This document shows positions 7,691 through 10,885 of a stretch of 39,467 nt of DNA, in pieces. The notes under the pieces were generated by a model that searched no databases, had not been told where the DNA came from, and saw nothing but the letters and a program-made list of their open reading frames with translations. The first letter of the stretch is position 1. Each line of letters begins with the position of its first letter. The stretch is taken from UHGV virus genome UHGV-0285531; one strand, given 5' to 3'. A program made the translations under genes and the position numbers. The DNA is from a virus.

Positions 7691-10600
7691 ATGTCCACGA
7701 TTACACAATTCCCTTCAGGAAACACTCAGTACAGGATTGAGTTCGACTACCTCGCCAGAACGTTTATTGTTGTTACGCTGGTGAATAGCTCTAACCCTAC
7801 CCTGAACCGTGTACTGGAAGTTGGTCGAGATTACCGATTCCTTAATCCAACGATGATTGAGATGTTGGTTGACCAATCAGGTTTTGACATCGTTCGTATT
7901 CACCGTCAGACTGGAACTGACTTAGTGGTAGACTTCAGGAATGGCTCAGTGTTGACAGCTAATGACCTGACCAATTCAGAGCTTCAGGCTATCCATATTG
8001 CAGAAGAAGGTCGAGACCAAACGGTTGACTTAGCGAAGGAATATGCCGATGCTGCTAGTAGCTCTGCTGGCAACGCTAAGGATAGCGAGGACGAAGCACG
8101 ACGAATCGCTGAGAGTATCAGGGAAGCTGGTCTAATTGGTTATATTACCCGTCGCTCCTTCGAGAAAGGCTACAACGTTACAACATGGAGCGAGGTCCTG
8201 CTATGGGAAGAGGATGGTGATTATTACCGCTGGGATGGTACGCTTCCAAAGAACGTTCCTGCTGGTTCAACTCCTGAAACTTCCGGTGGGATTGGATTAG
8301 GTGCGTGGGTTAGTGTTGGTGATGCTGCTTTAAGAAGTCAGATTTCAAATCCTGAAGGGGCAATACTCTACCCTGAATTACATAGAGCACGCTGGCTTGA
8401 TGAAAAAGATGTTCGTGGTTGGGGTGCTAAAGGTGATGGTGTCACTGATGATACAGCAGCGTTAACGAGCGCATTAAACGACATACCGGTTGGACAAAAG
8501 ATTAATGGCAATGGGAAGACATATAAGGTCACATCCCTGCCTGACATTAGTCGCTTCATCAACACTCGTTTCGTTTATGAGCGCATTCCCGGACAACCTC
8601 TTTATTATGCCTCTGAGGAATTTGTTCAGGGTGAGTTGTTCAAAATAACGGACACCCCTTATTACAATGCGTGGCCTCAGGATAAAGCGTTCGTATATGA
8701 TAATGTGATATATGCACCTTACATGGGTAGTGATCGTCATGGTGTTAGTCGTCTGCATGTATCATGGGTTAAGTCTGGTGATGATGGTCAAACATGGTCT
8801 ACTCCAGAGTGGTTAACTGATCTGCATCCAGATTACCCTACAGTGAACTATCACTGTATGAGTATGGGTGTATGTCGCAACCGTCTGTTTGCCATGATTG
8901 AAACACGTACTTTAGCCAAGAACGCATTAACCAATTGTGCATTGTGGGATCGCCCCATGTCTCGTAGCCTGCATCTTACTGGTGGTATCACTAAAGCTGC
9001 AAATCAGCAATATGCAACAATACATGTACCAGACCACGGACTATTCGTGGGTGATTTTGTTAACTTCTCTAATTCTGCGGTAACAGGTGTCTCCGGTGAT
9101 ATGACTGTTGCAACCGTAATAGATAAGGACAACTTCACGGTTCTTACACCCAACCAGCAGACTTCAGATTTGAATAACGCTGGAAAGAATTGGCACATGG
9201 GTACTTCTTTCCATAAGTCTCCATGGCGTAAGACAGACCTTGGTCTAATCCCTCGCGTCACAGAGGTGCATAGCTTTGCTACTATTGATAACAATGGCTT
9301 TGTTATGGGTTATCATCAAGGCGATGTAGCTCCACGCGAAGTTGGACTTTTCTATTTCCCTGACGCTTTCAATAGCCCATCTAGTTATGTTCGTCGTCAG
9401 ATACCATCTGAGTATGAACCAGATGCGTCAGAGCCGTGCATCAAGTACTATGACGGTGCATTATACCTTATCACTCGTGGCACTCGTGGGGATAGGCTAG
9501 GTAGCTCTTTGCATCGTAGTAGAGACATAGGTCAGACTTGGGAGTCACTGAGATTTCCACATAATGTTCATCATACTACATTACCTTTTGCTAAAGTAGG
9601 GGATGACCTTATTATGTTTGGTTCAGAACGTGCAGAAAATGAATGGGAAGCAGGTGCACCAGATGATCGTTACAAGGCATCTTATCCTCGCACCTTCTAT
9701 GCGCGCTTGAATGTAAACAATTGGAATGCAGATGATATTGAATGGGTTAACATCACTGACCAGATTTATCAGGGCGGAATAGTTAACTCAGGTGTAGGTG
9801 TTGGTTCGGTAGTTGTGAAGGATAATTACATCTACTACATGTTTGGTGGAGAGGACCATTTTAACCCATGGACCTATGGAGATAACTCAGCGAAGGACCC
9901 ATTCAAAGCGGATGGTCATCCCTCAGATTTGTATTGCTACAAAATGAAGATTGGCCCAAGCAATCATGTTTCCCGTGATTTCAGGTATGGTGCTGTACCT
10001 AACAGAGCTGTTCCCGTGTTTTTTGATACGAATGGGATTCGCACTGTTCCTGCGCCAATGGAATTTACAGGGGATTTGGGTTTAGGTCATGTGACTATTA
10101 GAGCCAGCACCAGTAGTAACATTCGCTCTGAAGTTTTAATGGAAGGTGAATATGGGTTTATCGGGAAATCTATACCGACTGATAACCCGGCAGGGCAGCG
10201 CACCATATTTTGCGGAGGCGACAGTACCAGTTCTTCTTCTGGTGCACAGATTACGCTTTATGGTGCAAATAATACCGACTCAAGGCGAATAGTTTACAAT
10301 GGTGCTGAGCATCTGTTCCAGACTGCTGACGTTAAGCCTTATAACGATAACGTCACTGCGCTTGGTGGGCCTAGCAACCGTTTCACCACTGCATACCTCG
10401 GAAGTAACCCTATTGTTACTTCTAACGGGGAGAGGAAAACAGAGCCGGTAGTTTTTGATGATGCTTTCCTTGATGCCTGGGGTGACGTTCACTACATCAT
10501 GTACCAGTGGTTAGATGCTGTTCAACTGAAAGGCAATGATGCTCGTATTCACTTCGGGGTTATTGCTCAGCAAATTCGTGATGTATTCATTGCACATGGT

Positions 10601-10885
10601 CTGATGGATGAAAACAGTACGAATTGTCGTTATGCTGTTCTGTGCTATGACAAGTATCCACGGATGACCGATACGGTATTTTCGCACAATGAAATCGTTG
10701 AACACACTGACGAGGAGGGTAATGTCACTACTACGGAAGAACCTGTATACACCGAGGTGGTTATTCACGAAGAGGGTGAGGAGTGGGGTGTTCGGCCTGA
10801 CGGAATTTTCTTTGCTGAAGCCGCTTATCAGAGAAGAAAACTGGAAAGAATCGAAGCCAGACTTTCTGCTCTTGAACAGAAGTAA
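7691..10885 (+). CDS. 17: tail fibre / tailspike with endo-N-acetylneuraminidase (endosialidase, K1 capsule depolymerase) and C-terminal intramolecular chaperone domain
   Basis: 1064 aa; N-terminal ~150 aa is T7 gp17-like adaptor (MSTITQFPSGNTQYRIEFDYLARTF...); remainder matches, by recollection, the phage K1F endosialidase including the C-terminal auto-cleaved chaperone segment; ATG 7691 after AGGAGG. Confidence 0.88.
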   Translation: MSTITQFPSGNTQYRIEFDYLARTFIVVTLVNSSNPTLNRVLEVGRDYRFLNPTMIEMLVDQSGFDIVRIHRQTGTDLVVDFRNGSVLTANDLTNSELQAIHIAEEGRDQTVDLAKEYADAASSSAGNAKDSEDEARRIAESIREAGLIGYITRRSFEKGYNVTTWSEVLLWEEDGDYYRWDGTLPKNVPAGSTPETSGGIGLGAWVSVGDAALRSQISNPEGAILYPELHRARWLDEKDVRGWGAKGDGVTDDTAALTSALNDIPVGQKINGNGKTYKVTSLPDISRFINTRFVYERIPGQPLYYASEEFVQGELFKITDTPYYNAWPQDKAFVYDNVIYAPYMGSDRHGVSRLHVSWVKSGDDGQTWSTPEWLTDLHPDYPTVNYHCMSMGVCRNRLFAMIETRTLAKNALTNCALWDRPMSRSLHLTGGITKAANQQYATIHVPDHGLFVGDFVNFSNSAVTGVSGDMTVATVIDKDNFTVLTPNQQTSDLNNAGKNWHMGTSFHKSPWRKTDLGLIPRVTEVHSFATIDNNGFVMGYHQGDVAPREVGLFYFPDAFNSPSSYVRRQIPSEYEPDASEPCIKYYDGALYLITRGTRGDRLGSSLHRSRDIGQTWESLRFPHNVHHTTLPFAKVGDDLIMFGSERAENEWEAGAPDDRYKASYPRTFYARLNVNNWNADDIEWVNITDQIYQGGIVNSGVGVGSVVVKDNYIYYMFGGEDHFNPWTYGDNSAKDPFKADGHPSDLYCYKMKIGPSNHVSRDFRYGAVPNRAVPVFFDTNGIRTVPAPMEFTGDLGLGHVTIRASTSSNIRSEVLMEGEYGFIGKSIPTDNPAGQRTIFCGGDSTSSSSGAQITLYGANNTDSRRIVYNGAEHLFQTADVKPYNDNVTALGGPSNRFTTAYLGSNPIVTSNGERKTEPVVFDDAFLDAWGDVHYIMYQWLDAVQLKGNDARIHFGVIAQQIRDVFIAHGLMDENSTNCRYAVLCYDKYPRMTDTVFSHNEIVEHTDEEGNVTTTEEPVYTEVVIHEEGEEWGVRPDGIFFAEAAYQRRKLERIEARLSALEQK

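Follow-up and report, generated by a model that had tools for sequence, protein, structure and literature searches.

Endosialidase tailspikes and the position of gene 17

The architecture and structure of the tailspike of phage K1F, its self-cleaving chaperone and its horizontal transfer were published in about 2003-2010, and T7 and K1F together are a textbook example of tail-fibre domain swapping. The K1F tailspike (gp17 or endoNF; PDB 1V0E, 3GVJ-L, 3JU4 and 3GW6), an endo-N-acetylneuraminidase of glycoside hydrolase family 58, is encoded between gp16 and holin. The gp17 of T7 has a homologous N-terminal tail-attachment domain but otherwise a coiled-coil shaft and an LPS-binding tip, with no enzyme and no self-cleaving chaperone. 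Phages K1-5 (gp47) and K1E (endoNE) of Vectrevirus carry an enzyme of the same family as K1F but lack the T7-type anchor, and attachment is via a separate adaptor protein (PMC6872550). Endosialidases are also found in N4-like Gamaleyavirus phages (UE-M3, UE-S5b and PBM-2/3) and in myovirus IME392, the virion architectures of which, like the N-terminal attachment modules, are unrelated.

The whole stretch of DNA analysed here (the window, 39,467 nucleotides) is almost certainly a circularly permuted genome of a K1F-like Kayfunavirus, in which gene 17 (7691..10885, + strand) encodes the sole receptor-binding protein, an endosialidase tailspike. The reading frame starts with ATG and encodes a precursor of endoNF type of 1064 aa, followed by the stop codon; K1F gp17 has the same length and domain order. 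As judged by PHROG assignments, the genes follow the T7 order (gp15, gp16, gene 17, holin, small terminase, Rz spanin, large terminase), and gene 17 sits where T7-group genomes have it, after the gene for internal virion protein gp16 and before the holin and terminase genes. The gene 17 region is collinear with K1F positions 31161-37355 (97.2% identity). The backbone of the window resembles Kayfunavirus LNA3 (95.5% identity) and BUCT788 more closely than it does K1F itself.

A Shine-Dalgarno sequence AGGAGG (7681..7686, + strand) lies 4 nt upstream of the ATG. Upstream of it, a motif of the phi17 type, ACTATCACTATAGGAAAC (7627..7644, + strand), begins one base past the gp16 stop codon and would, given its likeness to T7-group promoters, serve as a dedicated phage RNA-polymerase promoter for gene 17, as in T7. 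The promoter core has 10 matches dispersed over the window, all on the + strand, as compared with a mean of 0.02 in dinucleotide-preserving shuffles. A scan of gene 17 for sigma-70 promoters returned 5 sites, with 6.7 expected. On the 3' side, a consensus scan of 10886-11016 detected no terminator, and folding of 10880-11016 gave a stability not above that of shuffled sequence (z = 0.68) and hence no convincing terminator after gene 17. The only downstream match, at 11078-11096, was discarded, as it falls within the holin gene and such matches are no more frequent than in shuffled sequence. An old K1F record annotates a terminator after gene 17. Open reading frames on the minus strand or in alternative frames of gene 17 (e.g. 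8474-8758, 9004-9294 and 10511-10768, all minus) were rejected as genes because they appear in a mechanical list of reading frames only, whereas every recognised gene and each of the ten phage promoters is on the + strand.

Aligned over 100% of its length, gene 17 has 97.6% nucleotide identity and 97.56% amino acid identity with its K1F counterpart, and the mature enzyme part is 97.3% identical to the characterised K1F enzyme. The closest deposited phage by gene 17 DNA is vB_EcoP_PR_Kaz2018 (98.4% nucleotide identity), and 30 phage records match it over 80% or more of its length, the full-length ones being 95-98% identical. A public assembly already contains the exact gp17 protein, which falls into one cluster with K1F endoNF, and the K1F record annotates the counterpart gene as 'precursor of gp17, endosialidase'. 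The crystal-structure chains of endoNF 1v0e/3gvl align at nearly every position to aa 245/246-910 (1540 bits), and chain 3gw6 aligns to aa 790-1064 (611 bits). Gene 17 is therefore a K1F-type endosialidase tailspike gene, already known and with all its essentials published; it adds one natural variant of a heavily studied enzyme and opens no new question.

The differences from K1F amount to 26 amino acid substitutions, 10 of them in the stalk, where the nucleotide divergence reaches 6.4% as compared with 1-2% elsewhere. All but two of the variant residues (24 of 26) also occur in a set of seven other natural homologues of full length, the exceptions being S91N and V590A. Several homologues carrying the variant residues come from phages isolated on K1 hosts.

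Domain architecture and conserved residues of gp17

Seven Pfam domains were identified in gp17, all above their curated cut-offs and in the expected order. The N-terminal tail-attachment (anchor) domain (aa 1 to ~130; 7691..8080, + strand) is of the T7 gp17 type, as had been proposed from the sequence: Phage_T7_tail (PF03906) matches aa 10-120 with 57 bits (cut-off 25.2), the T7 gp17 PDB chains 7boz/8dsp align to aa 6-115, and tblastn against T7/T3 gene 17 gives 39% identity over aa 6-113. With Klebsiella KP32-type fibres, the alignment spans aa 1-130.

The original prediction assigned everything after the first ~150 residues to endosialidase and chaperone, which holds for the enzyme itself (aa 246-910) but overlooks two intervening elements. 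A helical Ala/Glu-rich linker (aa ~104-150) precedes a Tail_spike_N domain (aa 156-211; 8156..8323, + strand; PF18668, E 4.7e-19). The latter is common to Kuttervirus/CBA120-type tailspikes, which are 50-60% identical over aa 151-226 (tblastn, Kuttervirus), and PDB entries 4oj5, 5w6h, 5w6f and 6nw9 align to the same residues. A match to LEA_4 (aa 104-132) fell below the Pfam cut-off and was read as a low-complexity helix, not a separate domain.

The assignment as an endo-N-acetylneuraminidase was borne out by the HMM search, which recovered cap, propeller, barrel and stalk in canonical order over aa 246-910. The N-terminal cap (aa 246-312; 8426..8626, + strand; PF12218, End_N_terminal, E 2.8e-37, 127 bits) is followed by the six-bladed beta-propeller catalytic domain (aa 313-754; 8627..9952, + strand; PF12217, End_beta_propel, E 2.9e-221), for which the match of 734 bits (cut-off 24) covers profile positions 1-366 of 367. 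Inserted in the propeller is the beta-barrel polysialic-acid binding domain (aa 424-506; 8960..9208, + strand; PF12195, End_beta_barrel, E 6.4e-48, 161 bits), and the stalk, a triple beta-helix 'End_tail_spike' domain (aa 757-910; 9959..10420, + strand; PF12219, E 1.1e-77, 260 bits), completes the enzyme; the cap, barrel and stalk matches are likewise far above cut-off. A match to BNR_2 (aa 341-381) was below the Pfam cut-off and was read as the known sialidase-like propeller motif, not a separate domain.

In an ungapped alignment with K1F, the propeller active-site residues H350, R549, E581, R596 and R647 are identical, and Q330, K585 and N699 are also unchanged; the roles of the gp17 domains and of these five critical residues have been described (PMC12632334). 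The stalk carries the third polysialic-acid binding site, and its residues R837, S848 and Q853 are kept; the stalk is the part most diverged from K1F. A cluster of substitutions (I838T, E844D, G845S, T849S and T850S) adjoins this site. The stalk is reported to tolerate mutation and even to be adaptive (PMC12632334), and the cluster could represent host-tuning variation such as a recent mutational scan terms a 'tuning knob'.

Directly after the triple beta-helix lies the predicted C-terminal intramolecular chaperone domain (aa 911-1064; 10421..10882, + strand), recognised by Peptidase_S74 (PF13884, aa 916-971, 36.3 bits, cut-off 22) and by the 3gw6 alignment, and 100% identical to that of K1F (0 of 154 residues differ). 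Self-cleavage is predicted between T910 and S911 (10420|10421), within the motif IVT|SNGERK, and the K1F record annotates the same processing (mat_peptides 2-910 and 911-1064). A Ser/Lys dyad (S911, K916), with R915 in a supporting role, and essential N912 and G956 have been reported for the chaperone domain (PMC3742443). The residues S911, R915, K916 and G956, as well as R866 and D994, are unchanged with respect to K1F, and N912 was read from the motif IVTSNGE, so that the putative cleavage machinery appears intact.

Extent and origin of the specificity cassette

The limits of the exchanged segment were mapped by BLAST against two non-K1 kayfunaviruses, LNA5 and Salmonella phage CHRF_20041. 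The spikes of these phages are 90-97% identical in amino acid sequence to gp17 through the anchor, linker and Tail_spike_N domain, up to aa 211-224, and their C-terminal specificity modules are entirely different. At the DNA level, homology stops at 8325 (LNA5) or 8323 (CHRF_20041) and restarts at 10927 or 10915, respectively, with none between 8325 and 10915; the flanks are 93-96% identical, and unrelated sequence lies between them in the non-K1 phages. The receptor-specificity cassette thus consists of aa 212-1064 and about 30 nt of 3' spacer (8326..about 10914, + strand), and since it extends from 8326 to about 10915, the chaperone is included. Phage IME207, an unrelated Shuimuvirus, shares 8214-10896 with the window, and its cassette is 94% identical. 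The junctions in the sister phages and the presence of the cassette in unrelated phages show directly, independent of composition, that the cassette was swapped into a conserved Kayfunavirus backbone. The left junctions differ between partners, with positions of aa 175, aa 211 and about aa 264. The anchor, linker and Tail_spike_N part of PDB 9VVR, an 843-aa tail spike of a non-K1 kayfunavirus, is likewise 90-97% identical to gp17, up to aa 264.

The cassette is not uniformly related to the other known endosialidase genes. Over aa 246-910, the enzymes of K1-5 and K1E are 82-83% identical to gp17, and the DNA identity with K1-5 in the propeller core (8707-9756) is 93-98% but merely 57-76% in the stalk of K1-5/K1E. 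Their DNA alignment ends at aa 911, hence the chaperone domain differs. The opposite holds for the N4-like phages: the stalk and chaperone DNA of UE-M3 (9755-10913) is 82-99% identical, and at the protein level the chaperone has 99.4% identity with that of UE-S5b and 93.5% with that of IME392, but the propeller core of Gamaleyavirus and IME392 has merely 65-76% DNA identity. We consider the chances about even that the K1F-type cassette is itself a recent three-way recombinant, with a K1-5-like propeller core and a stalk/chaperone like that of N4-like Gamaleyavirus. If so, it would be a case of unrelated K1 phages still exchanging sub-domains, though not a new kind of system. The detailed map of recombination and the variant cluster in the stalk add a little to what is known and could be of use in engineering tailspikes.

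The base composition of gene 17 is not uniform with that of the rest of the sequence. Its GC content is 0.452 as compared with 0.501 in the remaining window, and the lowest-GC windows of both 3.2 kb and 2.2 kb in the whole sequence lie within it. At third codon positions, gene 17 has a GC content (GC3) of 0.387, below that of each of the other 35 among the 36 ORFs and below the 0.55 of the backbone; relative to 20 other ORFs with 150 aa or more, z = -4.0. For the cassette (aa 212-1064), the GC content is 0.445 against 0.500 elsewhere and GC3 is 0.375 (Fisher p = 9.5e-23 against backbone third positions). Values at the first and second codon positions are ordinary, and the deviation is greatest at synonymous third positions. 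AT-richness had been proposed for the catalytic region at 8280-10500, and it is real, but the limits need correction: the low-GC tract begins at ~aa 175-212, where GC3 falls to 0.21-0.27 (aa 175-245) and the dip sharpens exactly at the mapped left junction, and takes in the chaperone domain (GC3 0.416), up to the end of the gene. The horizontal acquisition suggested in the original prediction agrees with this composition and is seen as exchange against the non-K1 kayfunaviruses at 8323-8325 and 10915-10927. The lower GC of the cassette (0.445 versus 0.50) is typical of other phage lineages with endosialidases. However, it could not be used to identify the source: 0.445 is equally close to several backbones of ~44-46% GC (IME207, K1-5, UE-M3 and IME392), so no donor lineage can be named.

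The AT-richness might instead reflect a local or gene-specific constraint (mutational bias in the late block, expression-linked codon choice or the amino acid composition of a beta-rich tailspike) in a gene ancestral to the K1F lineage. The 211 N-terminal codons, which are common to the non-K1 kayfunaviruses, also have a low GC3 (0.436 versus 0.55, p = 1e-3), as do the small downstream genes for holin and Rz (about 0.49), which may make the dip regional in part. Counting the window, 5 of the 7 endosialidase phages compared also have a module with a GC at or below that of the surrounding backbone, a hint of an intrinsic tendency. A constraint is nevertheless a very improbable account, given the low cassette GC3 with ordinary first and second positions, the sharpening at the junction and the unrelated sequence that sister phages with near-identical flanks hold in the same place, as well as the occurrence of the cassette in a Shuimuvirus and of its parts, at 93-99% identity, in Vectrevirus and N4-like phages.

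Nor is gp17 likely to be anything other than an active, single tailspike. That the 26 substitutions include 10 in the stalk, clustered beside the sialic-acid binding site, could be expected of a binding-only polysialic-acid lectin or a decaying copy in a phage using another receptor. This is extremely unlikely with an intact reading frame, conservation of all catalytic and processing residues named in the literature, natural occurrence of 24 of the variant residues in full-length homologues, the reported tolerance of the stalk to mutation (PMC12632334) and no second receptor-binding gene in the window, where all other long ORFs are accounted for. Similarly, since the Tail_spike_N domain (aa 156-211) is homologous to N-terminal modules of the CBA120/Kuttervirus tailspikes that form branched complexes, it might be a platform for a second tailspike, giving a dual-receptor phage like G7C, K1-5 or KP32. 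Such phages have a branching domain or adaptor together with a docking-peptide tailspike, a combination absent here: the Pfam scan revealed no T4gp10-like domain in gp17 and the window contains no second tailspike ORF. The PF18668 region is distinct from the T4gp10-like branching domain, and K1F is described as a phage with one receptor-binding protein and an anchor only (PMC13352976; PMC6872550), leaving branching with a very low probability.

Predicted mode of action and host range

Nothing that we found contradicts the assignment of gp17 as an endosialidase tailspike. From experiments on K1F, we infer that gp17 cleaves polysialic acid, processes itself, attaches to the tail and is specific for K1. 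Gene 17 would be transcribed late from its own promoter (7627-7644), and the 1064-aa precursor would trimerise under the guidance of the chaperone domain (aa 911-1064). Once the triple beta-helix of the stalk has folded, the Ser911/Lys916 dyad would cut after Thr910 and release the chaperone. The mature trimer (aa 2-910) would then join the tail via its anchor of T7 gp17 type (aa 1 to ~130), presumably docking at the gp11/gp12 tail interface, with the helical linker and Tail_spike_N domain connecting anchor and enzyme. In K1F, fusions to this anchor are reported to be functional (PMC13352976). The cap, the propeller with its beta-barrel and the stalk would bind alpha-2,8-polysialic acid at three sites, and the polymer would be cut at the propeller active site (H350, R549, E581, R596 and R647), allowing the phage to tunnel through the capsule of E. 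coli K1.

The endosialidase is essential for infection by K1F, and O-antigen and capsule modification further modulate host range among K1 strains (PMC12632334). The K1 host range predicted from the sequence of gp17 agrees with the literature and with the hosts on record for most of the near-identical phages (O18ac:K1:H7, K1 LU_100, UTI89 and DSM 30083). The window can thus be annotated cleanly as a K1F-like phage with predicted K1-capsule specificity, a prediction useful for picking therapeutic phages against E. coli of neonatal meningitis and urinary-tract infection. Near-identical genes also occur in records with non-K1 host labels, namely LNA3 (K-12 MG1655), vB_Aba_01KA (Acinetobacter) and IME207 (Klebsiella).

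Identity and architecture of the gene 17 product

Gene 17 was found at exactly the coordinates given in the original prediction, 7691-10885 (+ strand), where the ORF list has one long ORF on that strand. It opens with ATG, 4 nt downstream of a ribosome-binding site, AGGAGG, read from the sequence on the same strand, and encodes 1064 aa. When 50,697 phage records were searched using megablast, 30 covered at least 80% of the gene, and full-length matches were 95-98% identical, the top match being vB_EcoP_PR_Kaz2018 (98.4%), annotated as endo-N-acetylneuraminidase. Gene 17 of the reference coliphage K1F matched at 97.6% identity over 100% of the length; its record labels the gene 'precursor of gp17, endosialidase' and divides the product into the mature peptides 2-910 (endoNF*) and 911-1064 ('intramolecular triple-beta-helix chaperone domain'). 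The two proteins, equal in length, have 26 differences in 1064 positions. A public run assembly already contains an identical protein, and the 90% cluster of the window protein also holds K1F endoNF and endoNF crystal-structure chains. As judged by these sequence comparisons, the product of gene 17 is a K1F-type endosialidase tailspike. For this type, earlier publications already cover the modular architecture, the structure, the self-cleaving chaperone and the horizontal origin, T7 and K1F being named 'type examples' of such transfer (PMC6872550).

A Pfam scan of the product returned seven domains, all exceeding curated cut-offs: Phage_T7_tail (aa 10-120, 57 bits), Tail_spike_N (aa 156-211, 68.7 bits), End_N_terminal (aa 246-312, 126.7 bits), End_beta_propel (aa 313-754, 734 bits) with an inserted End_beta_barrel (aa 424-506, 161 bits), End_tail_spike (the stalk; aa 757-910, 260 bits) and Peptidase_S74 (aa 916-971, 36.3 bits). 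In a sequence search of solved structures, aa 245/246-910 aligned to the endoNF chains 1V0E and 3GVL (~1540 bits), and aa 790-1064 to the stalk-plus-chaperone structure 3GW6 (611 bits). The predicted T7 gp17-like N-terminus is thus borne out by Phage_T7_tail, the endosialidase by the four End_ domains and the 1V0E/3GVL alignment, and the C-terminal chaperone by Peptidase_S74 and 3GW6. However, though these three parts had been named correctly, a module between anchor and enzyme had been missed, which consists of a helical Ala/Glu-rich linker and the Tail_spike_N domain. The latter also occurs in the tailspikes of CBA120 and other members of Kuttervirus (PDB 4oj5, 5w6h, 5w6f, 6nw9), to which aa 151-226 are 50-60% identical by tblastn.

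The catalytic residues H350, R549, E581, R596 and R647 and the further critical residues Q330, K585 and N699 are the same as in K1F, as are R837, S848 and Q853 of the stalk, which we take from endoNF structural work to be binding-site residues. Also the same are the R866-D994 contact pair and the predicted self-cleavage dyad S911/K916 with R915, N912 and G956, the cleavage motif in the window protein being IVT|SNGERK. The roles of the catalytic and further critical residues follow the deep mutational scan of K1F (PMC12632334), and those in self-cleavage the MYRF/ICA paper (PMC3742443).

Boundaries and mosaicism of the endosialidase cassette

Two non-K1 kayfunaviruses, LNA5 (species LM33P1) and Salmonella phage CHRF_20041 (species SH4), have flanks 93-96% identical to the window and nothing in common with it between them. 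On the left, homology ends at 8325 and 8323, respectively (aa 211/212, exactly the end of Tail_spike_N), and on the right it restarts at 10927 and 10915, 30-40 nt beyond the stop codon. These breaks therefore define an exchanged cassette of ~8326-10914, chaperone included. This comparison provides direct, sequence-level evidence of cassette exchange, and the horizontal acquisition originally proposed is upheld by it. The same cassette is present in an unrelated phage, IME207 of Shuimuvirus, where 94% identity extends over 8214 (aa 175) to 10896.

PDB 9VVR, an 843-aa tail spike, has aa 1-264 in common with the window protein, and this similarity therefore gives a third junction position. The motif at aa 245-264 may be an alternative recombination junction common to different depolymerase tailspikes. 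This motif, GAKGDGVTDDTAA (8423-8482), opens the enzyme part and marks the end of similarity to the otherwise unrelated 9VVR; a weak pectate-lyase-like Pfam match (PF12708, aa 241-263) arises from it.

The GC content of gene 17 is 0.452 versus 0.501 in the rest of the window; GC is as low as this in only 2% of windows of its size, all of which overlap gene 17, and its GC3 (0.387) is the lowest among 36 ORFs (z = -4.0). The 853-codon cassette has a codon-usage distance of 0.455 to the pooled backbone, versus 0.16-0.26 for backbone genes of >500 codons. The predicted AT-richness of the catalytic region was therefore confirmed, but not its limits of 8280-10500, as GC3 drops sharply at ~aa 175-245 (0.21-0.27) and is still low across the chaperone domain (0.416), up to the stop codon. 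The N-terminal 211 codons, common to other kayfunaviruses, also have mildly low GC3 (0.436), which blurs composition as a marker on its own. The GC content of the cassette (0.445) is near that of the backbones of several carriers (0.435-0.456) and 5-6 points under that of the window backbone, which is consistent with import, though the donor cannot be named.

The catalytic module is 95-99% identical at the amino acid level in Kayfunavirus, 96% in Shuimuvirus, 82-83% in Vectrevirus K1-5/K1E, 83% in N4-like Gamaleyavirus and 82% in myovirus IME392. More distant copies are carried by phi92-like myoviruses and Kagunavirus siphoviruses (about 52%), by CUS-3 prophages and by a Mannheimia phage (35%). 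The chaperone has a separate, wider distribution, K5 lyase included. At the DNA level, K1-5 is 93-98% identical to the cassette over the propeller core (8707-9756) and 57-76% elsewhere, with identity stopping at aa 911, whereas N4-like UE-M3 is 65-76% identical in the core and 82-99% in stalk plus chaperone (9755-10913); IME392 has the same pattern as UE-M3. Given these opposite patterns, gene 17 is a finer-scaled mosaic than originally proposed, and the endosialidase cassette is itself a patchwork at the DNA level.

Variation and host range

The stalk (156 residues) holds 10 of the 26 differences from K1F, i.e. 6.4% versus 1-2% elsewhere and 0% in the chaperone. A cluster of I838T, E844D, G845S, T849S and T850S (10202-10240, aa 838-850) adjoins the conserved R837/S848/Q853; the E844D/G845S/T849S/T850S set is also present in two metagenome-derived homologues. 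In seven natural full-length homologues examined, 24 of the 26 variant residues were seen again, only S91N and V590A being absent. The K1F mutational scan found the stalk mutation-tolerant and adaptive, and reported N565, which is S in the window protein, as a flexible position (PMC12632334).

In line with the predicted host range, K1 strains were the isolation hosts of most phages whose genes are near-identical. The endosialidase is described as specific for alpha-2,8-polysialic acid and as essential when K1F infects, and infectivity among K1 strains is also modulated by capsule modification and O-antigen (PMC12632334); the best reading is therefore that the K1 capsule is necessary, not sufficient. 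Three records with intact endosialidase genes, 94-97.5% identical over shared parts, carry non-K1 host labels: MZ311862.1 (LNA3; E. coli K-12 MG1655), PV615262.1 (vB_Aba_01KA; Acinetobacter baumannii) and KX523699.2 (IME207; Klebsiella pneumoniae), the last without the first 523 nt of the gene. Either these metadata are questionable or hosts extend beyond K1.

Genome context of gene 17

The window holds the entire genome of a Kayfunavirus in circularly permuted form; over 95% of its first 25 kb, the backbone has 95.5% identity to LNA3. A 785-aa ORF spans the two window ends (37431-39467 joined to 1-321), and the genome is therefore complete and permuted without terminal overlap. This ORF sits directly after a 188-aa ORF ending at 37431, where T7 gene 12 is expected, and from its position and length is presumably gene 12 (tail tubular protein B).

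Around gene 17, the genes follow the canonical T7 order: those for gp15 and gp16 (an internal virion protein bearing a transglycosylase) precede it, and those for holin, small terminase, Rz spanin and large terminase come after it. The window contains 10 copies of the core ACTATCACTATAGG, each on the + strand (starts at 351, 7627, 13882, 16660, 19738, 21784, 22987, 31451, 34272 and 35272), versus 0.02 expected by chance, and the core is therefore of the phage-polymerase promoter type. Gene 17 would have its own copy, the predicted promoter ACTATCACTATAGGAAAC at 7627-7644 (+ strand), one base past the gp16 stop codon. A convincing terminator was not found after gene 17. Nor was a second tailspike gene found in the window, which agrees with published accounts in which K1F is a mono-RBP, anchor-only system (PMC13352976, PMC6872550).

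No ORF of at least 80 aa is present in 13783-15217 (~1.4 kb, from the large terminase gene to the first early genes). Collapsed genome ends and early promoters are expected in this interval in T7-group phages. The mechanical gp16 ORF (3721-7626) opens with TTG at 3721, the K1F-equivalent ATG lying at 3739 (1295 aa), and the gp16 N-terminus bears a transglycosylase/endolysin-type domain. An other-frame ORF (11625-11948) is nested in the Rz-like spanin gene (11573-12022) at the position of K1F gene 18.7, an arrangement typical of T7-group phages.
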